From sequence record KJ190157: DNA of 64,000 nucleotides, one strand, 5' to 3'. Positions 1-64,000 of the stretch are shown here, one piece after another; within the stretch, counting starts at the first letter, position 1; every line of letters begins with the position of its first letter. The position numbers and the translations under genes were made by a program. The notes under the pieces are model-generated. The model was not told the origin of the DNA. It saw nothing but the letters and a program-made list of their open reading frames with translations, and did not search any database. The DNA is from Escherichia phage vB_EcoS_FFH_1.

Positions 1-322
1 TAACTGCTTTCTCGTAATCTTTCATGGCCATGCCATTACGAGGGAACAATTCTGCTCCAGCATTGAAACTCAGTGCTACTGGAACAGATTTGTGACCATA
101 ACCCTGTACATAGGTCACAAGGCGGGCTACAGAACGAGTGGCATTCTTAGCCTTCGGCTTTTGACGAATCGGAGCCGGATTATTCAGTGCTTGAGCAGCC
201 TGAGCATCAGTAGGGTGCTTGCGCAGGTGGCGTTCCAGACGAGCTTTGCGGTTAGCCTCAGTCTGCGGGAAAGTTTTAACTGTAGTAGCTGCTTGAGTTT
301 TTGCGTTTTTCTGCTTAGCCAT
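1..322 (-). CDS. hypothetical basic protein, N-terminal 107 codons only; CDS runs off the window start
   Basis: ATG at 322-320 (minus); frame stays open to position 1; translation begins MAKQKNAKTQAATTVKTF; codon usage strongly biased to ctg/cgt/gct/ccg, unlike the AT-rich neighbours. Confidence 0.45.
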   Translation of the reverse strand, partial: MAKQKNAKTQAATTVKTFPQTEANRKARLERHLRKHPTDAQAAQALNNPAPIRQKPKAKNATRSVARLVTYVQGYGHKSVPVALSFNAGAELFPRNGMAMKDYEKAV

Positions 323-34599: not shown

Positions 34600-35042
34600 T
34601 TAAAATTAAACTAACCCATCCAGATTGTATGCCTAAGATTGGTTCCGAAAATGCTGCAGGTATGGATCTGCGAGCATTCTTTGGTACTAACCCTGCTGCA
34701 GATTTACGTGCTATTGCACCAGGCAAATCCTTAATGATTGACACCGGTGTCGCGGTGGAAATTCCGCGAGGTTGGTTCGGTTTGGTAGTTCCACGTAGTT
34801 CTTTAGGTAAACGCCATCTGATGATTGCAAATACCGCAGGTGTGATCGACTCAGATTATCGTGGGACTATTAAGATGAACCTGTTTAACTACGGTTCTGA
34901 AATTCAAACTCTGGAAAATTTTGAAAGACTTTGTCAGTTGGTAGTAGTACCACACTACTCAACACATAATTTTGAAATTGTTGATGAACTAGGGGAAACT
35001 GATCGTGGTGAAGGCGGGTTTGGAAGCTCCGGAAGCAGATAA
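34596..35042 (+). CDS. dut: dUTPase
   Basis: 148 aa; dUTPase motifs AAGMDLRA, PRSSLG, GVIDSDYRG, C-terminal GGFGSSG. Confidence 0.9.
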   Translation: MIKIKLTHPDCMPKIGSENAAGMDLRAFFGTNPAADLRAIAPGKSLMIDTGVAVEIPRGWFGLVVPRSSLGKRHLMIANTAGVIDSDYRGTIKMNLFNYGSEIQTLENFERLCQLVVVPHYSTHNFEIVDELGETDRGEGGFGSSGSR

Positions 35043-35268
35043 TTTTAGTGATCCTAATATGGTAGGTATTGATACTAGTATGTCAGCTTATCAGATTAAA
35101 ACTACTAAACCAGAAACGTTTGTGCTAAAAACAGATAAAGAAGGTAATGTTACTTTCTGGGATCCTGAAGGTTTTGTAGAGTTTTGTACTAATACTAATA
35201 ATGAGCATTTAAAAATACTATTAACTATCTATAATCTTGGTATTATAGAAGGTTGTAGAAGCAAGTAA
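35005..35268 (+). CDS. hypothetical protein (87 aa or shorter)
   Basis: last plus-strand ORF before bidirectional terminator; start uncertain. Confidence 0.3.
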   Translation: MVKAGLEAPEADNFSDPNMVGIDTSMSAYQIKTTKPETFVLKTDKEGNVTFWDPEGFVEFCTNTNNEHLKILLTIYNLGIIEGCRSK

Positions 35269-35272
35269 TATA

Positions 35273-35310
35273 AAAACCCCAGCGGACAAAATCCGCTGGG
35301 GTTTCTTTTT
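35273..35310. terminator. bidirectional intrinsic terminator at the early/late convergence point
   Basis: AAAAA-CCCCAGCGGA-CAAAA-TCCGCTGGGG-TTTCTTTTT; U-tracts available on both strands. Confidence 0.75.
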
Positions 35311-35391
35311 ACTATGCGTATATAATTATCTATCTGGATTATTGAGCTGGTTCACAAGTTTTTCAGTTCGATTAATTCTTGCTCAAATTTG

Positions 35392-37134
35392 TTAGGAACC
35401 ATTCGCTTCTTTTAATGCAGCTAATTCTGCTTCTAGGTTTTCCACCTTTTCCATCAAAGCAAGTATCGCCTCGTGGTGCAGTGCAGCTGCTACACCTGGC
35501 GTATTAACAGATTTTATGTTATCCAACGTCGAACCGTCGCGCAGAGTAACAGGTGATGACTGAGTTTCAGATACTGCTTCAGGAAAGTCTTTCTCTACAT
35601 CCTGAGCAATAAATCCATACCCAACTGAGCCGTTTGTTTCTAGCACCCATTTAACCCCTTTAATGTTTCGCATCTTAGATAGTGGATCGTTTATACGCTC
35701 AATATTACTTTTAATGCGTTTGTCGGATAAGTTTCTCCATTCTTGACCTTTTGCTATACCATCCGTCCCAAAAAGATAAGATGCAGCTCCTCCGATTCCG
35801 TTATAGACATTAAGCTGTACTCTATCTAACAACGTATTACCGGAGCGAATACCACCAAACATCCAGTTTCCATCGTACCAATCGCCGCTTATAGTGTTTA
35901 CATAATACCCTTCTGACACATTCGCGTAGTTAATCATTCTGATGGCGTTTCTTTCTATAGCGGCAACTCCAACAGAGTTTAATGGCTGTGCAACGAAGTC
36001 TTTTGCTCGTATGTATGCGTTAACCTGTAGCTCGCCATCAGACCTTAGCGTGCCAATTTGAGTTTCTGCGCTTGGGAAGTACAAAGTCCCAGCTTGATTA
36101 AATGACCACTCTTGAACCCCGTTTGATATAACTGCACCTTGTTCAGACGTCAATCCATCAATCTTTCCGTAAGATTGCAGATATGCTTGATGCGTAGTAG
36201 TTGTGCCAATCTTGTATTCTGACTTCACACTACCACCCCTTACAACTGTCCCAGTAGGAGGTTTGACAGCATCAGCGTTTATTACACTCCATGATGTATT
36301 TGCCGCAACGAAACCACCGGACGCCCGTATTACCCACACCCCGACAAAGTTTCGTGTAAGAATCTCGTCGGTTGATGCTCCGTAAATCGGACTTGACATT
36401 GAGGCATTGAAGTCGCAGGTATTATAACGCCCGGCGAGCGCCGCTGTGCCTGGGGGTATACCGTCTCCTTTTCCTTCCGGAAATACATTATTACTTGCGG
36501 TAAAAGAACCGCCTGTCATACCTAATACCTGGCCGTAAGTTTGAGCGGAATATGTGGTGAAAAAGCCTGTAATATTAGGCGCAGCAGATTCGAACAGTTG
36601 CCCATTTGCACCACTATTCCCGCCATCTCCACGGCCATAAAGAGCACGTATTGATCCCTCCTGCACCCCATTCTTATCTGGAACACGAAAAGTTGTTGCT
36701 CCGTCACCATTAGAGTATTTGCCACGCTGGAATTTATCCGCTAACCATACGGAATCCTCTATAACACCAACCATTTGAGCGTATGCCCAAAGCTCCGGCC
36801 AGTCAGCCCTGTTAAGAAGCTGCCCATCAGAAACTACTTCATAAGGTTGAATATACGCACGGCTATCGCGAAGGTGGAAATCACCAACACCGTAATTCAT
36901 AACACCATTCATAGTGGGACCGACTGTACCGGTGTTAATCTTATTCTCTACCCAACGTTTAGTTGCGGCATCATAGTCCCCAACAGGATCTCCCGCAAGA
37001 GGGGTGGACCCAATAGGACGCACATTTAACCATGCTGCTGCACGGTCTGCAAGATCGGATAAATTGTTGTTTTTATCCATCTTTTCGTCTTTAAGTTTTG
37101 TAATATCCTGGGGGATATTAGTATAAGTAGTCAT
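35392..37134 (-). CDS. tail fibre protein with tail-collar-like domain and C-terminal S74-type intramolecular chaperone
   Basis: Collar-like segment (WPELWAYA...GDGATTFRVPD); C-terminal SDKRIKS...GYGFIAQDVEKDFPE...LEAELAALK typical of auto-cleaving chaperone domains. Confidence 0.75.
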   Translation of the reverse strand: MTTYTNIPQDITKLKDEKMDKNNNLSDLADRAAAWLNVRPIGSTPLAGDPVGDYDAATKRWVENKINTGTVGPTMNGVMNYGVGDFHLRDSRAYIQPYEVVSDGQLLNRADWPELWAYAQMVGVIEDSVWLADKFQRGKYSNGDGATTFRVPDKNGVQEGSIRALYGRGDGGNSGANGQLFESAAPNITGFFTTYSAQTYGQVLGMTGGSFTASNNVFPEGKGDGIPPGTAALAGRYNTCDFNASMSSPIYGASTDEILTRNFVGVWVIRASGGFVAANTSWSVINADAVKPPTGTVVRGGSVKSEYKIGTTTTHQAYLQSYGKIDGLTSEQGAVISNGVQEWSFNQAGTLYFPSAETQIGTLRSDGELQVNAYIRAKDFVAQPLNSVGVAAIERNAIRMINYANVSEGYYVNTISGDWYDGNWMFGGIRSGNTLLDRVQLNVYNGIGGAASYLFGTDGIAKGQEWRNLSDKRIKSNIERINDPLSKMRNIKGVKWVLETNGSVGYGFIAQDVEKDFPEAVSETQSSPVTLRDGSTLDNIKSVNTPGVAAALHHEAILALMEKVENLEAELAALKEANGS

Positions 37135-37144
37135 TAATCACCTC

Positions 37145-37411
37145 TTATGCCCATTTGCGTACACCGGGATTCTCAATAATGAATTGTTCGATGTCTGACA
37201 AGTCTATATTATCTCCTACTATCCTTATATTTATGTAATAACCTTCTTTACCAATAATAGCAGGGGTTTTACTTTTAGGGTCGTCTACCACAGGGATAAA
37301 ACCAATTTCATCTATAAACACGTTACCGTAGTTTGTCTTAAGCCACCCACTATCAACGACAACATCCAGATAATGTTTTTCATCCTTGAATTGTAAATTA
37401 ATATCTTTCAC
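37145..37411 (-). CDS. small hypothetical protein between the two fibre genes (88 aa)
   Basis: ORF filling the gap between fibre genes; stop/start adjacency with both. Confidence 0.45.
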   Translation of the reverse strand: MKDINLQFKDEKHYLDVVVDSGWLKTNYGNVFIDEIGFIPVVDDPKSKTPAIIGKEGYYINIRIVGDNIDLSDIEQFIIENPGVRKWA

Positions 37412-39862
37412 TTAAACTTTCTCCCGCATTTGACTATCTGTTAATACTCTATTCCATATTCTAAGGTTTCGCACATGACCATATAATTTAGTTGAATCGG
37501 AGGGTCTTCCTCCTATCTCCAGCAAGGAATCCGGAGGTAGCCCTTCCCACGTTGAACCGGAGGATGTTATATTCTTAAGACCATTCAAAAACGATGTTAC
37601 ATCTCCATCTTTTGTATGAATGAACCCCCATATAGACGGGACACCTACCCCACTAAATGAAGATCCGTTCGATCCTATGGAGGTTCCAGTTTCTTTATTT
37701 AAAAAGTAAACGCTGGGAACCCTTGTACCTATGACAACTTCGGATACAAAAGATTCACCAGCAGTATTGTAACGGTTGTTATCAATTATCATCGGGTATG
37801 TATTATCCAATTGAAAGCTATCCCAGTTAGTGCTTACCTCAACAAGGAATGAAATGTTCAACCCTGAGAAATTATTTCTTGCGGGTATAGTAACATAATC
37901 TAGAGCCCTTGTTGCAGGAGTGCTTCCCGTAATAATGAAGGAGGATGCACAAAAACCCTTTTCAAATTGTGGAGTACAAAATGATATCGTGTCCCCAACT
38001 TGCACAGGTTGATCATTATTCCGACAATAATTTACAGATCCAATAGAACTACCTCCACGTTCTACAAATTTACACATAGCTTCAACTTTCAACCATCCGT
38101 TGTCTTCTCTATATATTCTATGTGCTATAGTCCCTCTCCCTTCTACTATAGAAGAAACTTCGCCGGTTTCGCAATTTATGAAAGATCTAGCGCCGAGAAT
38201 AAGACCCCCATCCTCACCTACTAAATAAAATTGTGGGGTGATATAGATATCCAAGTTTGCCTTTACTCGTATAGATAAAGAAACGTATTCATTTTGCTGA
38301 CAGTTGATTGCATTTACTGTTTCACAATAAAATAATGGGGGATACTCACCTTGTGACTTTTCGTTTGCTGTCGCCGTTGCATATGCAAAACCATACTTAT
38401 CGACATTATAAGTAACATCACTACGGTATTTATCTGTATTTAATGAAGCGGGGTCATTACTGAAAGTAATGTGATTTGTCCTCTGGCCCTCAATCAAGAG
38501 TCCTTGCTTTTCAAATCTAGGTTCATCGATATTAGCAATGCAAAATTCACCATGCTTATTTATGTATGTTGCATTTGACGCACGTGAGAAACTAACAACC
38601 TTATCAGAAGGCATTGTAATAACATCTGCACCAACTGTTATTTTCTTATAGCCGGGTGAGTAACCTGCTAGCATATCAAGCGAGTCATTAAATGGAATCC
38701 ATACGTCAGGGAATGGTTGAAGATCCGGAGCCCTGTTAGCTGCAATTTCCGCACGGTCTGCTTCTGCTTTTGCACGGTCTGCTTCTGCTTTAGAGCTGTT
38801 TGCACTACCAGCAGCATTGCTAGCTTGTTGCCCGGCCTCAATAGCACTATTACCAGCTTGTGTAGCAGAAGCAGCAGCTTGGTTTTTTAAAGCTGTTGTA
38901 TCAGATACCGCGCTATCCTTAATACCTTGTGTATCCGTTTTTAATTGCTCAACATCTGCTTTTAAAGTTGTTATCTCGGATACCGCGCTATTTTTAATGG
39001 CCTGGGTATCAGATTTTAACTGTTCTACATCCGCTTTTAAAGCTGTTGTCTCTGTTACAGCACTATTTTTAATGGCCTGGGTATCAGATTTTAACTGTTC
39101 GACATCTGATTTAAGTCCTTGAATAGCAGCTACAGATTGGCTGGCAGAAGTTGCAGATCCCGCAGCATTAGTTTCACTAGCCTTAGCTTTTGTTTCCGAG
39201 GTTTTTGCATTGGTTTCAGAGATTTTTGCCGCAGATGCCGATGCAGCAGCTTGCCCAGAAAATATTTCCGCCTCATTCCTAAAACCGCTAGAATCATCCG
39301 CTGATTGAGCTGCATTAGTCTCACTGACCTTTGCGTTACCCTCGCTAAGTTTTGCATCAGCCGCTGATTGAGCTGCATTAGTCTCACTTGCCTTTGCATT
39401 AGTCTCACTAATTTTTGCAGCAGCAGCTGATGCGTCAGCGTTAGTTTCACTAGTCTTTGCATTAGTTTCACTAGTCTTCGCATTAGCTTCACTAGTCTTC
39501 GAGTTAGTCTCGGATGTTTTAGCTGCGGCAGCGGATTCTGCAGACTTATTGGCTGATGCTGCAGACTGAGTAGCAGAAGTAGCTGATTGAGTAGCAGAAG
39601 CTTCTGAAGCTCCAGCGGAAATAGCAGCATCATTTTCAGATTCTTTAGCATTAAGTTCTGAGGTTTTAGCAGCTACTTCAGAATCTTTTGCAGCCGCAGC
39701 AGATTTAGCGGCGGCCTCTATAGAAGATACTAACTCATTAGCAGTAATAGAGCTAATAGAATTTCCAAGAGTTACTGTGTATCTAGGAAATTTACTAGCA
39801 GTAGTTTTAGTATCATCAATATTTAATATTTGTTGTACAATAATCTTAGTAGTTATTGCCAT
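37412..39862 (-). CDS. ltf: L-shaped tail fibre-like protein (proximal part) with fibre repeats and C-terminal LamG-like domain
   Basis: 816 aa; N-terminal repetitive SETNAK(T/A)SETN units, three 25-aa tandem repeats, C-terminal jelly-roll-like segment ending HVRNLRIWNRVLTDSQM. Confidence 0.7.
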   Translation of the reverse strand: MAITTKIIVQQILNIDDTKTTASKFPRYTVTLGNSISSITANELVSSIEAAAKSAAAAKDSEVAAKTSELNAKESENDAAISAGASEASATQSATSATQSAASANKSAESAAAAKTSETNSKTSEANAKTSETNAKTSETNADASAAAAKISETNAKASETNAAQSAADAKLSEGNAKVSETNAAQSADDSSGFRNEAEIFSGQAAASASAAKISETNAKTSETKAKASETNAAGSATSASQSVAAIQGLKSDVEQLKSDTQAIKNSAVTETTALKADVEQLKSDTQAIKNSAVSEITTLKADVEQLKTDTQGIKDSAVSDTTALKNQAAASATQAGNSAIEAGQQASNAAGSANSSKAEADRAKAEADRAEIAANRAPDLQPFPDVWIPFNDSLDMLAGYSPGYKKITVGADVITMPSDKVVSFSRASNATYINKHGEFCIANIDEPRFEKQGLLIEGQRTNHITFSNDPASLNTDKYRSDVTYNVDKYGFAYATATANEKSQGEYPPLFYCETVNAINCQQNEYVSLSIRVKANLDIYITPQFYLVGEDGGLILGARSFINCETGEVSSIVEGRGTIAHRIYREDNGWLKVEAMCKFVERGGSSIGSVNYCRNNDQPVQVGDTISFCTPQFEKGFCASSFIITGSTPATRALDYVTIPARNNFSGLNISFLVEVSTNWDSFQLDNTYPMIIDNNRYNTAGESFVSEVVIGTRVPSVYFLNKETGTSIGSNGSSFSGVGVPSIWGFIHTKDGDVTSFLNGLKNITSSGSTWEGLPPDSLLEIGGRPSDSTKLYGHVRNLRIWNRVLTDSQMREKV
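38885..39109 (-). repeat. three tandem 75-bp direct repeats inside the tail fibre gene
   Basis: units start at 38885, 38960, 39035; each encodes a 25-aa repeat (..DVEQLKSDTQAIKNSAV..TALKA). Confidence 0.8.
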
Positions 39863-40284
39863 TATCTAGTTACCCCATCACTGATAAATACTTTACCCTC
39901 CATTATACGAAAAGAGCTAATAGCTGATCCTATGACATCTCGTGTCATAATTATATCATAGTATCCTGCAAAACGTTGGCGAGGGTTATACTTATCTCTC
40001 TCTTTGGTAGCTTTTTCGCCGATATTATCTACCGCCTCTACAGGTAAACTTATAGCTATAGCACCTTGAGCAGCATCAATAATTTTAGTAGTAAAAGATG
40101 CCAAAGTTTCCGCGTCCTCATCAAGCCCGGCCTTTATAGTACCCCTTAGGGAATACCCTGTTAAGTTAACAGGGGTATTTGTAGGTGGATAAGTACTATC
40201 ATCAACATCTAAGAATTGCATCATTAGACCATAAGGTACTTTCTCATCTATCACTAAGTCTATAACTCTATTTTCAGTACTCAT
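39862..40284 (-). CDS. small tail (collar-like) protein (140 aa)
   Basis: Position between fibre and baseplate genes; size matches T5 p132 from memory. Confidence 0.45.
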
Positions 40285-57201: not shown

Positions 57202-58415
57202 TCTTTATCTCCCTCGGTGGAACCTTGAGGTCTACCACCTTCTTGACCAGATACACCTGTTGCAGAACCAGCAACGTTAGCAGGAATACGAATCCTATCC
57301 ATCTGCTCATCATCTAAAGGTTCAAGGTTCAGCTCTAAACGAGCTTCGTTACCAGTCATAATACCATTATTAACCAATGAGGTTAAATGTTTAGCCTCAG
57401 CTTCTTTATCTGGTGTTAATGCAGCTACCTCCTTAGTATTAGGAGTAATCTTATAACCAAAAAAGAAAGTAAGAGAACTAGTCAGTTTGTTCAGCATAGG
57501 AATGATAGTCATATAATAGAACAATTCGATGTTTGGTCGAATATTCGCATTATTACCACCATCAAGCAGTACTTGCGGAACTCCAAAGGCTAGACAAATA
57601 GATTTATTAAATCCTTCGATGTCTTCCTTAAAGTCTAGATCTTTAAAAGAGGATATTTGGGAGTACGGTTTAGCTTTCATACCACCATCTAGAATCAGGA
57701 CAGAAGACTGACCAGTACTAGGATTATAATCGAGTTGTAATTCTTCTTGTTTACGCTCACGCAATTTCTTGTTCAGGATTTCATCCGTTTCAAGAATAAG
57801 ACCAATCACGGTTCCATTATCTAGGAATTTCTCTTTAAAGTTAAGCATCTTAGAACGCTTCTCAAGAGAATCAATAACAGTAGCAACACGAGATTGTCCA
57901 GAAATTTGAGAGTTTGTGCCGCACACGTAACTGTTATCCTTTATAAAGATAATCTCATCTACGCGATAGTCTATCTGATTATTAAATATAAATTTTTTGA
58001 TAAACTTATTGGCATCTGCCTCGACCTGCATAAGAGCAGCCGGGACATGGTAAAGCGATGTGCCATCCCAATAGATGTATGCACAACCTTCAAAAAGTAG
58101 GTCAGTGACTACAAGTCTACGGAATGTGCTTATATCCATGAATGGATTAGGTCGTACATTTAAGAGAGTGTCTAGAGTCTTTGTTTTGACGCCATTAGCG
58201 TACGTAACAATATTATATTTATCTCCGACAGTATAAGAACACTCCGCCGCACTATCTATAACCATATTGGCAGTTCGATTGAGAATCTCAATCTTGCTAT
58301 AGGCTTGTCCAGTGGTAAAAGGCTTACGGTTAGTGCGATGACTAACTGGTTCCATGTCTCTTATAATACGTTGACCCGGATTTAACTTTTCAGTAATCCA
58401 GCTTTTTAAACCCAT
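57198..58415 (-). CDS. portal protein (pb7-like)
   Basis: 405 aa downstream of terminase/HNH; overlaps neighbours (TAATG, ATGA). Confidence 0.75.
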   Translation of the reverse strand: MGLKSWITEKLNPGQRIIRDMEPVSHRTNRKPFTTGQAYSKIEILNRTANMVIDSAAECSYTVGDKYNIVTYANGVKTKTLDTLLNVRPNPFMDISTFRRLVVTDLLFEGCAYIYWDGTSLYHVPAALMQVEADANKFIKKFIFNNQIDYRVDEIIFIKDNSYVCGTNSQISGQSRVATVIDSLEKRSKMLNFKEKFLDNGTVIGLILETDEILNKKLRERKQEELQLDYNPSTGQSSVLILDGGMKAKPYSQISSFKDLDFKEDIEGFNKSICLAFGVPQVLLDGGNNANIRPNIELFYYMTIIPMLNKLTSSLTFFFGYKITPNTKEVAALTPDKEAEAKHLTSLVNNGIMTGNEARLELNLEPLDDEQMDRIRIPANVAGSATGVSGQEGGRPQGSTEGDKE

Positions 58416-58852
58416 TATAAGAACCTTGCGAATCCTGATTTTATTTCAGTCTTGACTTGTGTCTTTTCTTGAGGATTCTGTAATTTGTCTTTCTGCTTTT
58501 GAACCCACACTTTTTGCTTATTAGCAGAAAATAAAGGAGGTTCTTTTGTGTAAACCTTATGTAATAATTGGTGATGGTGTACACAAAGGGTAACAGTGTC
58601 TTCTACTAGCTCATGCCTATATCGATCATAGAATGCCGTCCTATTTGAAAGGACTATTTCTTCGTCAGTGAAATCCAATTGGAGTTCTTTAGCAAATTTT
58701 TTAACTAGTAGAGACACCGTATGGTAATGATGAAGCTCTAATTCTTCAGCACAACCGCAGATAGCACATTGAGAGTCTTTTTTATATTGACTTTTTATTC
58801 CGTCTCTCATAAGGGATATAGCATCGCGTTTATATTTTATATTGCTTGCCAT
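58415..58852 (-). CDS. HNH endonuclease (terminase-associated type)
   Basis: Cys/His-rich HNH-like motifs CAICGCAEELELHHYH ... LCVHHHQLLH; start at ATG 58852 with GAGGAG SD (ORF track extends to 58939). Confidence 0.7.
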   Translation of the reverse strand: MASNIKYKRDAISLMRDGIKSQYKKDSQCAICGCAEELELHHYHTVSLLVKKFAKELQLDFTDEEIVLSNRTAFYDRYRHELVEDTVTLCVHHHQLLHKVYTKEPPLFSANKQKVWVQKQKDKLQNPQEKTQVKTEIKSGFARFL

Positions 58853-58966
58853 AGTGTTCTCCTCAACTGTATGAATATAGTATACATAATCGTATCGAAT
58901 TTGTAAAGGGGATTTTAAAATACAGGAATGGGATACCAACTGAGTAGTATCCCATCCTATACTTAT

Positions 58967-60775: not shown

Positions 60776-62698
60776 TTAGGTAAGGCGTTGAATTATAAGT
60801 TTAATATTTGGTAAGCATGCTTTCATGCCAATTATATTGCTCATAGAGGATTCTAACCAAATAGAGATATTATTATTTCCATCATTTCTCATATAGTATG
60901 TTAGAGTATAGTAACCCGTTTGACCTACGGATCCTGGCAACCCAGATACCCAGTACGGAGTTGGAGTATACCCAGCAGCCTGTAATTTACAAGCATTTAC
61001 TACAGTACCTTTAATAGTAAAAAATGGTACATATTCTCCTGCAGGTAGGGACAATATTTGGTGAAGTTTTTTATCAATAGTATTGCCACCCATTCTAAAC
61101 CTACTATCGCCATATTCAGCGCCTTTAGATAGCATTTCCGTAGGATTAAAGCAGCCAATACCTCCTGCAGACAACCATGTGTCATCTAGGAACTCCATAG
61201 TACATACAATTGCACCATTTCTGCTACTATTAAGATCTAGTCCCACGGTACCAACATGCACGGAACCATTACCCTGAAATACTATGTTACCAGATAGTAC
61301 AGTACTTCCGCTACCACCTAGAAGTCTTAAAGGTAGAAGATTTTCACTCCAAACGTCCCCATAATTACTCCCTATTTTTGGAGGATTACTAGAAACATAC
61401 CAAGATGCTGAAGGTAAAAAGTTATAAATACTAACTACATTAGTATTTAAACCACCAACGTTACCACCCTTAATACTTGGTGCGTTATTGCTTTCTGTGG
61501 TTGGTAGTCCAAATGTTGCTATGCCAGAGATCCCAGTAGAGGGGCCACCCATACTCAAGTTACACCCAACATCACGAAAATCAGCTCTGCTCCCTACATT
61601 AAAGTTTTTCTCAACAAAGTTGATAAACTTCCAAGATGTATTATTAACGTTAATACCTTTAATAATAAATTCAGTGGGGCTTAATTTTATATCATTACCT
61701 GTAAATAATCCAGCATCAATACTATAACCTGAACCATTATACACTAAGTTAGTAACATACCAGGTAATTTTAGATGGATAAATACCGAGGTGCTCACTAT
61801 ATATACCTATGGGCCCATTAGCAGCATCATTCGGATCACCCATACTTTCCCAATACGCATAGTTAGTGGGATCAGCACGTGCGAAACCTACAGAGTACTT
61901 AGGAGCCGAGGGATTGCTAGGATTAGACATAAAGTTAAGAGCCCCTGAACTCGACGCCCCATGTACAGCTCCAGCAGTGGTGTAGTTGGGCCCTTCCATA
62001 CCATAAAGAACTCTATTACAAGACCTACCACGAACATATATGGCGTTAAATCCAAAGTTTCTAGCTCCTGGATGCCTAACGTAGTCGCTAGGGATAGTTA
62101 GAGTTCCTGAATCCGGCACTACATATCCTGAACCATCCCAGGCAGATTTGTAAAGAGCGGCACCGCCTAAGTACATTGCACTAGATGCAAATCCTCTACG
62201 CCCACTAAAGGCTCCAAACATATGCTGACATCCAGTACCATCTCTAAGCTTCTGGGGGATCGTACCGCTAGTACCACTATTAAAATAGCCTACATCAAGA
62301 GATAGATCAGCACTAGCTGTTATTTGTGTTTTTAAACCACCTTGAGACATGACCTGCGGATTTATAATTCCATACGCTTTAGCTCCTACCCCCATAGACA
62401 TGCCAGATAGCATATGTCTAGAGCCATCTGAGAACTCAATTTCTGTTAGCACAACTCTATTGGGGTCATTATTATGTAGCTGTGTAATTCTACTAGGCAT
62501 CTCAGACCAGTAATAGTCACCAGCACCCTGATCCAACCTTAACCCAGTAGAATGAGTTTCCGTTATAATTACGTGCGGCATATCTGAGTGAAAGATGGTT
62601 TGGGAATCAGGGTTGATATGTTGGTTAGTATCCCCACCACTACCCCTTCGCAGTGAGAGTATAGATTTGTTATTTAGCTTACCAGCGAAAAAACTCAT
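60776..62698 (-). CDS. oad: receptor-binding tail protein (pb5-like)
   Basis: 640 aa, Gly/Ser/Asn-rich; first gene of the minus-strand late block, divergent from lipoprotein gene; size equals T5 pb5 from memory. Confidence 0.65.
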
Positions 62699-62717
62699 AA
62701 GTTCTCCAAAAATTTAG

Positions 62718-62746
62718 TTGCTTATACTGCCATAATTCTGTATAAT
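62718..62746 (+). promoter_or_regulatory. early promoter TTGCTT-N17-TATAAT for llp
   Basis: -35 62718-62723, -10 62741-62746, downstream TATTATAAATT box. Confidence 0.6.
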
Positions 62747-62777
62747 AGTATTATAAATTAAATAGAGGAGAATGTAA

Positions 62778-63011
62778 ATGAAAAAATTATTTTTAGCTCT
62801 GGCAGTGGTAATTCTTTCGGCTTGCTCTACTTTTGGGCCTAAAGATATTAAATGTGAGGCCTACTATATGCAGGATCATGTGAAATATAAGGCCAATGTT
62901 TTTGATAGGAAAGGGGATATGTTTCTGGTGTCACCAATCATGGCCTATGGATCTTTCTGGGCTCCAGTAAGCTACTTTACCGAGGGGAATACATGTGAAG
63001 GAGTTTTCTGA
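62778..63011 (+). CDS. llp: lytic-conversion lipoprotein (Llp-like), predicted receptor-blocking
   Basis: 77 aa; signal peptide with lipobox MKKLFLALAVVILSAC; TTGCTT-N17-TATAAT promoter and AGGAG SD; adjacent and divergent to receptor-binding protein gene. Confidence 0.75.
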   Translation: MKKLFLALAVVILSACSTFGPKDIKCEAYYMQDHVKYKANVFDRKGDMFLVSPIMAYGSFWAPVSYFTEGNTCEGVF

Positions 63012-63165
63012 GGAGAATCCCTCCCATAAACCCATACCACTTAGGGTGGATCCTAGGTCAAAACTAGTTCACAATGCAATTGAGGTCATTCAGAACACCA
63101 TATAAGATAAAATGTTATGACTCGTGCAATTGCTAGAATATTTCAAAAATCACAATTATAGGAGC

Positions 63166-63303
63166 ATGAAAGATATGTCAAACAAAAGAAAGAGCAGACG
63201 CGGAGAAGTGTACGAAGAGTGGATTAATATTTACGGATTTGGTTTTGTATTATTCCTAATCTTCGTAGGTTTTTGGTTAGCAGCTATGGCGGGGTGGATT
63301 TAA
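63166..63303 (+). CDS. small membrane protein (45 aa)
   Basis: Not in ORF track (too short); AGGAG SD; basic N-terminus then hydrophobic helix FGFVLFLIFVGFWLAAMAGW. Confidence 0.35.
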   Translation: MKDMSNKRKSRRGEVYEEWINIYGFGFVLFLIFVGFWLAAMAGWI

Positions 63304-63410
63304 TGGAATGGGTAATTATTGCATTACTAGGGATTGTGATTGTTGGGCAATGTATCTTAGATAATCACTTAGCTAGAATCGAAACCTTACTATCGGAGAA
63401 ATGTAAATGA
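63303..63410 (+). CDS. small membrane protein (35 aa)
   Basis: Not in ORF track; ATG overlaps upstream stop (TAATG); hydrophobic helix WVIIALLGIVIVGQCIL. Confidence 0.35.
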   Translation: MEWVIIALLGIVIVGQCILDNHLARIETLLSEKCK

Positions 63411-63598
63411 TGGAAGTAGTAGCTACACTAATAGTAATACTAGTCTGGGCAACTTTCATTGTTTCTTATAACGCGTATGTTCGCCTAAAAACTCTAGAGG
63501 CTCAGGTAAAACAACAATTTGCTCTAGAAAAATTAGTAGAACTCCAACGTTGTGATAGTACCCGTATTCTGCAAATTGAGAGGGAATTAGATGTTTAG
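63407..63598 (+). CDS. small membrane protein (63 aa)
   Basis: ATGA overlap with upstream gene; N-terminal TM helix VVATLIVILVWATFIVSY then amphipathic helix. Confidence 0.4.
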   Translation: MMEVVATLIVILVWATFIVSYNAYVRLKTLEAQVKQQFALEKLVELQRCDSTRILQIERELDV

Positions 63599-63836
63599 TA
63601 TTATAATTGCTTTTATTATCGGGGTACTTGCGGGAATTTTCGGAATGACCGCGGCAATCAACAAGCATCGTAAATATATTGTGGAAGTATCGCGGGAGAT
63701 TGCGGAAAGGGAGCGGAAGTTTGACGAGAAACGTGAGAAGTTTGAGCGGGAGTGGTCAGATGGATCTCGGGCGTCGCGGAAGAGATTTCGTGAGTTTAGA
63801 CCCGAACACCGGTTTGATGACCCTTCTATGCGCTAA
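63591..63836 (+). CDS. small membrane protein with charged C-terminal domain (81 aa)
   Basis: Overlaps upstream gene by 8 nt; N-terminal TM helix FSIIIAFIIGVLAGIFGMTAAI, Arg/Glu-rich tail. Confidence 0.4.
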   Translation: MFSIIIAFIIGVLAGIFGMTAAINKHRKYIVEVSREIAERERKFDEKREKFEREWSDGSRASRKRFREFRPEHRFDDPSMR

Positions 63837-64000
63837 TTAACTTTTTGCCAAATTTCATAAGATTACACATGAGGATGTGCTCACTGCCTCCGGCGAAAAT
63901 ACTTAGTCTGCTAACCGCCACCCCTGTTACTATTACCATGCTAACTGTTTCACCCTGCAACCATTTTAATTGCAAGGTGAAACAATTTCAACTTTAATTA

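Follow-up and report, generated by a model that had tools for sequence, protein, structure and literature searches.

The closest described system is the oad/llp gene pair of phage T5 (X75922; T5.157 and T5.158 in AY543070). In the structural account given in PMC9586334, the T5 receptor-binding protein pb5 places four loops in the lumen of FhuA over an interface of ~2,100 Å2, loops L1 and L2 touch the plug with their tip residues Q115 and F170, and FhuA is described as unchanged. A further loop of the interface is named as residues 570-590 or 571-580 (PMC9586334; preprint 10.1101/2022.09.22.509047), and G166 is the residue altered in the classical oad mutant G166W (preprint 10.1101/2022.09.22.509047). 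The NMR structure of the T5 lipoprotein Llp and that of its complex with FhuA (8A60) have been solved (PMC9586334). Llp is presented in that account as periplasmic and lipid-anchored, with a Cys11-Cys58 disulphide and with mature residues I39-W46 bound to the FhuA plug in the place of the switch helix. Its binding moves the extracellular loops EL7 and EL8 inward by ~15 Å, where they clash with the pb5 loops, and the block by Llp extends to albomycin, phi80 and colicin M (PMC9586334).

Two other groups of systems and two further phages are relevant to the comparison. The hrs-llp pair of BF23 and DT57C is BtuB-specific, occupies the same genomic slot and likewise combines a receptor-binding protein with an adjacent lipoprotein that blocks the receptor, a TonB-dependent transporter (PMC4728585). 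The BF23-type Llp is reported as non-homologous to T5 Llp and as giving no protection against T5 (PMC4728585). The Cor lipoproteins of T1, phi80 and their relatives also are small, outer-membrane, FhuA-inactivating proteins, and they have an intramolecular disulphide in common with Llp at a pairwise Llp-Cor identity described as only ~20% (PMC9586334); unlike llp, their genes are housed in unrelated siphophage or lambdoid genomes. Phages vB_EcoD-Elw (OR621298; hereafter Elw) and SP15 (AP019559) were both isolated on E. coli O157:H7. An SP15-resistant O157 strain carried the fhuA mutation W511*, deletion of fhuA abolished SP15 plaques and adsorption, and fhuA supplied in trans restored adsorption (PMC11237537).

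The window analyzed here is a stretch of 64,000 nucleotides from Escherichia phage vB_EcoS_FFH_1 (KJ190157). Judged from its sequence, the source phage is a Tequintavirus (T5-like, Demerecviridae), that is, a strain or isolate of a well-known genus. Megablast searches with the cassette region and two 25-kb pieces of the window matched hundreds of Tequintavirus genomes, among which NBEco001 and Elw were the best relatives with 94-97% DNA identity, and T5 itself showed ~95% DNA identity in the replication region. Locally, the genes run portal, a small endonuclease-like ORF, terL, terS, oad, llp and four small membrane ORFs, and the order from terL to the four membrane ORFs is the same in the window, T5 and Elw. 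When mapped by offset, the end of the window lies approximately where the right terminal repeat begins in the T5 record. Rfam searches at the gathering threshold returned no match anywhere in the window, and no tRNAs were found in it.

The endonuclease-like ORF between portal and terL (58415-58939, minus strand) encodes 174 aa and matches phrog_3497 and, more weakly, an HNH endonuclease family; its Elw counterpart is labelled 'nicking site-specific endonuclease'. In T5 the slot holds an unrelated gene with a T5orf172/MUG113 domain, T5.154, without similarity to the 174-aa ORF (E=12), and the difference looks like an insertion polymorphism of the homing-endonuclease type. Divergence within the window is greatest at the locus for the lateral (L-shaped) tail fibres, which comprises two genes on the minus strand at 35392-37134 and 37412-39862 with products of 580 aa (phrog_6921) and 816 aa (phrog_1419), where T5 instead has one long ltf gene. 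No phage record covered at least 80% of 35000-40000, the best being NBEco002 with 75% coverage and 91% identity. It is probably this locus rather than pb5 that determines the O-antigen host range.

The features of the oad/llp cassette are as follows, in window coordinates:

60776-62698, minus strand: oad, encoding the 640-aa pb5 tail-tip receptor-binding protein assigned to the FhuA-specific type (ORF and homology).
62699-62777, no strand: divergent control region of 79 bp with both promoters and both ribosome-binding sites (comparison with T5 and SP15).
62704-62707, minus strand: oad Shine-Dalgarno GGAG, 5 nt before the ATG at 62698 (read from the sequence).
62718-62746, plus strand: llp promoter, with -35 TTGCTT (62718-62723), 17 nt and -10 TATAAT (62741-62746) (sequence and X75922 feature).
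62750-62778, minus strand: oad promoter, with -35 TTTACA (62778-62773), 17 nt and -10 TATAAT (62755-62750) (consensus scan and X75922).
62765-62770, plus strand: llp Shine-Dalgarno GAGGAG, 7 nt before the ATG (read from the sequence).
62778-63011, plus strand: llp, encoding the 77-aa precursor of the lytic conversion lipoprotein (ORF and homology).
62778-62822, plus strand: Llp signal peptide, aa 1-15, with the sequence MKKLFLALAVVILSA ending in the lipobox residues L-S-A before Cys16.
62823-63008, plus strand: mature Llp, 61 aa, 100% identical to mature T5 Llp.

A first-pass annotation of this DNA had described a 640-aa receptor-binding protein gene and, transcribed divergently from it, a gene for a 77-aa lipoprotein with an LSAC lipobox, and had likened the pair to the T5 Llp/pb5 paradigm. 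The coordinates of both ORFs were exact, both genes are intact, the lipobox corresponds to L13-S14-A15-C16 of the ORF at 62778-63011, and the two genes lie on opposite strands separated by the 79 bp at 62699-62777. The pb5 sequence matched phrog_4815 'receptor binding tail protein' (E=2e-257) and, in a search of PDB sequences, the T5 pb5 structures 8A8C and 8B14 (E=0), each over residues 1-640, and no Pfam family matched it. Llp matched phrog_1119 (E=2.5e-19 over residues 1-76) and the T5 Llp entries 8A60 (E=3e-50) and 7QJF. A chance origin of both ORFs is excluded by this PHROG and PDB homology. The likeness to T5 also proved to be more than a general resemblance: this is the T5 gene pair itself, with the same gene lengths (640 and 77 aa), divergent layout, two-promoter spacer of 79 bp and flanking genes, and with conserved intergenic promoters. 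The pb5 alignment with T5 is free of gaps, with 605 of 640 residues identical (94.5%), and 75 of the 77 Llp residues are shared. The differences from T5 comprise 35 pb5 substitutions, the Llp changes M8L and L12I, a diverged segment at 63012-63120, and 14% of the oad DNA (270 of 1923 nt, mostly at synonymous sites). As the differing oad codons include 214 synonymous and 35 non-synonymous changes, the gene is under strong purifying selection.

The relatives of pb5 fell into two distinct groups. Among 50,697 phage records, 31 carried a relative with at least 60% identity, which is the group that includes the window, and 500 carried one below 60%. Within the former, pb5 was identical at 639 of 640 positions with Elw (99.8%), 636 with SP15 (99.4%) and 632 with Salmonella phage S130 (98.8%), and identity with slur09 was 65.5%. 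Outside the T5 type, values among the matches listed reached at most about 40-41%, with Klebsiella types highest, and Salmonella and E. coli phages of the BtuB or FepA type were at about 28-36% among those same matches. A tblastn search with Llp found only 32 phage records, every one in the T5-type set, and no BF23-type phage. Alignment with T5 pb5/Llp and with BF23-type homologues, which had been put forward earlier as the check to perform, thus matched the T5 type, with the BF23 type distant or absent.

These distributions bear on whether the pair is directed against another receptor and merely resembles the T5 layout, the candidates being BtuB as for BF23 and DT57C, FepA as for H8, or another TonB-dependent transporter. 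The receptor cassette is swapped among T5-like phages, ~500 of the 531 records with a pb5 relative carrying non-T5 types, and BF23 Llp does the same job on BtuB (PMC4728585). Nevertheless, the chance that the window carries such a module is vanishingly small: pb5 is 94.5-99.8% identical to the T5, SP15 and Elw proteins compared to at most about 41% for other types, the match to BtuB-dependent DT571/2 amounts to about 36% over 70% of the length, the mature Llp does not differ from that of T5, which is FhuA-specific, and tblastn with Llp recovered the T5-type set alone, the BF23-type protein being without homology to T5 Llp (PMC4728585). A BtuB- or FepA-type module was rejected on pb5 identity and Llp distribution.

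Conservation of the receptor interface was assessed at Q115, G166, F170 and loop 570-590, out of 63 interface residues defined by PISA. Q115, G166 and F170 are unchanged relative to T5, and loop 570-590 differs by A576G and N578T, both of which also are found in FhuA-dependent SP15. Overall, the oad/llp pair is almost certainly the cassette by which a T5-like phage accomplishes host recognition and lytic conversion, and it belongs to the FhuA-specific T5 type. The receptor is assigned as FhuA because the mature Llp is the FhuA-inactivating protein of T5, because pb5 is so close to that of SP15, which is FhuA-dependent, because the named interface residues are kept and the changes in loop 570-590 are common to SP15, and because pb5 and Llp both fall within the T5-type group among phage records. 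The sequence data contained nothing that contradicts a cassette of the FhuA type. The first-pass annotation had held that visual inspection of the sequence could not reveal the identity of the receptor, but FhuA is assignable when the sequence is compared with those of T5 and SP15.

The Llp precursor has the N-terminus MKKLFLALAVVILSAC, in which the Cys16 codon is at 62823-62825, and the predicted cleavage point is MKKLFLALAVVILSA/CST. The residue at position +2 therefore is Ser and not Asp, which fits sorting to the outer membrane; the +2 sorting rule is an established part of the Lol pathway. Cleavage and acylation are annotated in the T5 record at the cysteine equivalent to Cys16, and Pfam gave only a weak, sub-threshold match to the LPAM_1 lipoprotein signal. 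As both substitutions relative to T5 fall in the signal peptide, the mature proteins are identical. Precursor residues C26 and C73 correspond to mature Cys11 and Cys58, and precursor I54-W61 to mature I39-W46; the two cysteines and the I39-W46 segment are invariant across 7 T5-type Llp sequences. Thus, the features needed by the T5 mechanism all are present, namely the lipobox cysteine, Ser at +2, Cys11, Cys58 and I39-W46.

The family matched by Llp, phrog_1119, is labelled 'Cor'. The match is best read as a distant superfamily relationship that groups Cor with Llp, with Llp as the precise family, and 'Cor' on records of T5-like phages is an annotation-pipeline name for Llp. RefSeq copies name the protein 'Cor superinfection exclusion protein', and the EC100, EC104, EC105, EC122 and EC142 records mislabel llp as 'lysozyme'. 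PADLOC returned nothing for Llp or for the four small ORFs downstream.

A mechanism can be proposed in which FhuA binding, early timing, periplasmic location and allosteric action are carried over from experiments on T5 and SP15. The pb5 protein would sit at the end of the straight tail fibre as its only receptor-binding protein, and pb5 loops would insert into the lumen of FhuA, an outer-membrane ferrichrome transporter, from the extracellular side in a nearly irreversible interaction that triggers DNA ejection. A separate sigma-70 promoter facing away from oad would drive llp, and the llp product would undergo export, cleavage by signal peptidase II and acylation on Cys16. Owing to Ser at +2, Llp would then be directed to the outer membrane, into its inner leaflet. 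From the periplasmic side it would bind a non-native state of the FhuA plug, whereupon EL7 and EL8 would fold inward over the pb5 site. As a result of this folding, infected cells and cell debris would no longer adsorb the phage's own progeny or other FhuA ligands.

The first-pass annotation had proposed that the lipoprotein blocks the host receptor. FhuA inactivation as in T5 stands as the expected outcome, whereas occlusion at the cell surface does not, T5 Llp being described as periplasmic and allosteric (PMC9586334). An older model, based on in vitro work, did hold that Llp acts from outside by directly covering the pb5 site. In the account of PMC9586334, the FhuA-Llp crystal structure (8A60) instead puts T5 Llp on the periplasmic face, FhuA without EL7 still binds pb5 while Llp is bound, and the in vitro effect required a 10^6-fold excess of soluble Llp. 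The mature part of the window protein is identical to T5 Llp and is preceded by a lipobox, with Ser at +2. Outside occlusion, a model already refuted for T5 by 8A60, consequently is very improbable for the window protein, and periplasmic allostery is retained as the preferred mode of Llp action.

The 79-bp spacer differs from T5 by one nucleotide and from SP15 by none. Alignment of the llp ATG at position 142 of X75922 with 62778 of the window (offset 62636) places the annotated features of T5 on the sequence. The llp promoter, which had been noted earlier as a promoter for the lipoprotein gene, is the TTGCTT-17-TATAAT element at 62718-62746; its span is identical to T5 and coincides with the X75922 feature 'promoter llp' (82-110, plus strand). 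The oad promoter coincides with 'promoter oad' (114-142, minus strand) and was found independently by consensus scan with 11 of 12 consensus matches. The llp promoter is absent from the output of that scan because its -35 hexamer matches the consensus at three of six positions. The two -10 hexamers are on opposite strands 3 bp apart, and the oad -35 extends over the first base of the llp ATG.

In 1994, Decker and colleagues and Braun and colleagues reportedly found T5 Llp to be produced early and to confer resistance to T5, phi80, colicin M and albomycin through FhuA inactivation. The llp promoter can be designated a putative early-type promoter on its identity with the T5 llp promoter and that reported work of Decker et al. 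in 1994. By the same analogy, extended through the identity of protein and promoter, llp of the window would be expressed early and would protect against FhuA ligands.

No intrinsic terminator was found after llp, and 63000-63125 folds no better than shuffled sequences (z=0.44). As a terminator is missing at the 3′ end of llp, the gene may be co-transcribed with the four small ORFs downstream. The non-coding segment immediately after llp, 63012-63120, is identical to Elw and strongly diverged from T5, and it has no significant RNA structure. The ORFs at 63124-63836 (plus strand) are equivalent to T5 orf1-4 and match phrog_8596, phrog_6369, phrog_5851 and phrog_6447; each of orf1-4 is annotated with a single transmembrane domain in the T5 record, and two of the small membrane ORFs are labelled 'tail fiber protein' and 'tail assembly protein' in the Elw record. 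Inclusion of the four ORFs in the receptor-specific cassette was considered and rejected: the last of them has homologues in 440 phage records, whatever their receptor type, compared to 32 for Llp. Beyond these ORFs, near the start of the terminal repeat, an inverted repeat at 63943-63987 has 18-nt arms with 89% complementarity and a 9-nt loop. The repeat corresponds to repeat_region 1312-1351 of X75922, where it is flanked by orf4 and the convergent dmp gene, and it may act as a bidirectional terminator.

The pb5/Llp pair is thus a confirmed, ordinary example of a system already known in structural detail. The sole new detail is fine-scale mosaicism among the FhuA-type oad/llp alleles. Differences were distributed along the cassette as follows:

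60776-62000, oad segment: 1 difference from Elw and 196 from T5.
62401-62698, oad 5′ end: 15 differences from T5, 39 from Elw and 33 from SP15.
62699-62777, spacer segment: 0 differences from SP15 and 1 from T5.
62861-62940, middle of llp: 4 differences from T5, 7 from Elw and 7 from SP15.
62941-63011, llp 3′ end: 0 differences from Elw, 1 from SP15 and 7 from T5.

The closest relative alternates between Elw, T5 and SP15 from segment to segment, which indicates that FhuA-type alleles have recombined repeatedly. Elw and SP15 have the same architecture as the window and near-identical pb5 proteins, but over the first 300 nt of oad the window sequence is closer to T5. Their Llp proteins carry M31V and S52A in precursor numbering, the only differences in the mature part, where the window has the T5 residues. 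The cassette therefore pairs a pb5 of the SP15/Elw type with a mature Llp of the T5 type. This combination is unsurprising since Llp contacts FhuA and not pb5, and since recombination inside the receptor module was already known from BtuB-type phages (PMC4728585).

The mosaic raises the question of whether, within an FhuA-type pair, pb5 recognizes other FhuA variants such as those of E. coli O157 or Salmonella, in which case the T5-identical Llp could be mismatched or only partly protective. The 35 residues that differ from T5 include clusters at 242-265 and 383-385 as well as A576G and N578T in the interface loop. Phages isolated on O157:H7 and on Salmonella Enteritidis carry near-identical pb5 alleles, and the module combines SP15/Elw-type pb5 with T5-type mature Llp. 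The substitutions could modulate which FhuA alleles are recognized. However, Llp contacts FhuA on the periplasmic face of its plug and barrel and need not co-vary with pb5, the SP15/Elw Llp differs at two mature positions only, and the key pb5 contacts are kept. A functional difference between the alleles with a mismatched Llp is accordingly considered unlikely. A similarly low probability is given to a joint reading in which the recombined pair of SP15/Elw-type pb5 and T5-type Llp would recognize O157 or Salmonella FhuA variants, while the close back-to-back promoters would compete for RNA polymerase and so form a switch from early (llp) to late (oad) expression. If true, the ideas of an altered FhuA range and a promoter switch would be refinements of a known system.

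The preferred reading remains that of an FhuA-specific cassette of the T5 type. The cassette carries little weight for discovery beyond a further case of recombination at fine scale between oad/llp alleles of the FhuA type, and its value is practical. Annotation of the phage can name both the terminal receptor, FhuA, and the superinfection-exclusion gene with high confidence. For the design of phage cocktails, loss of fhuA would be expected to give resistance, and cross-exclusion would be expected with phages of the T5, T1 and phi80 types.
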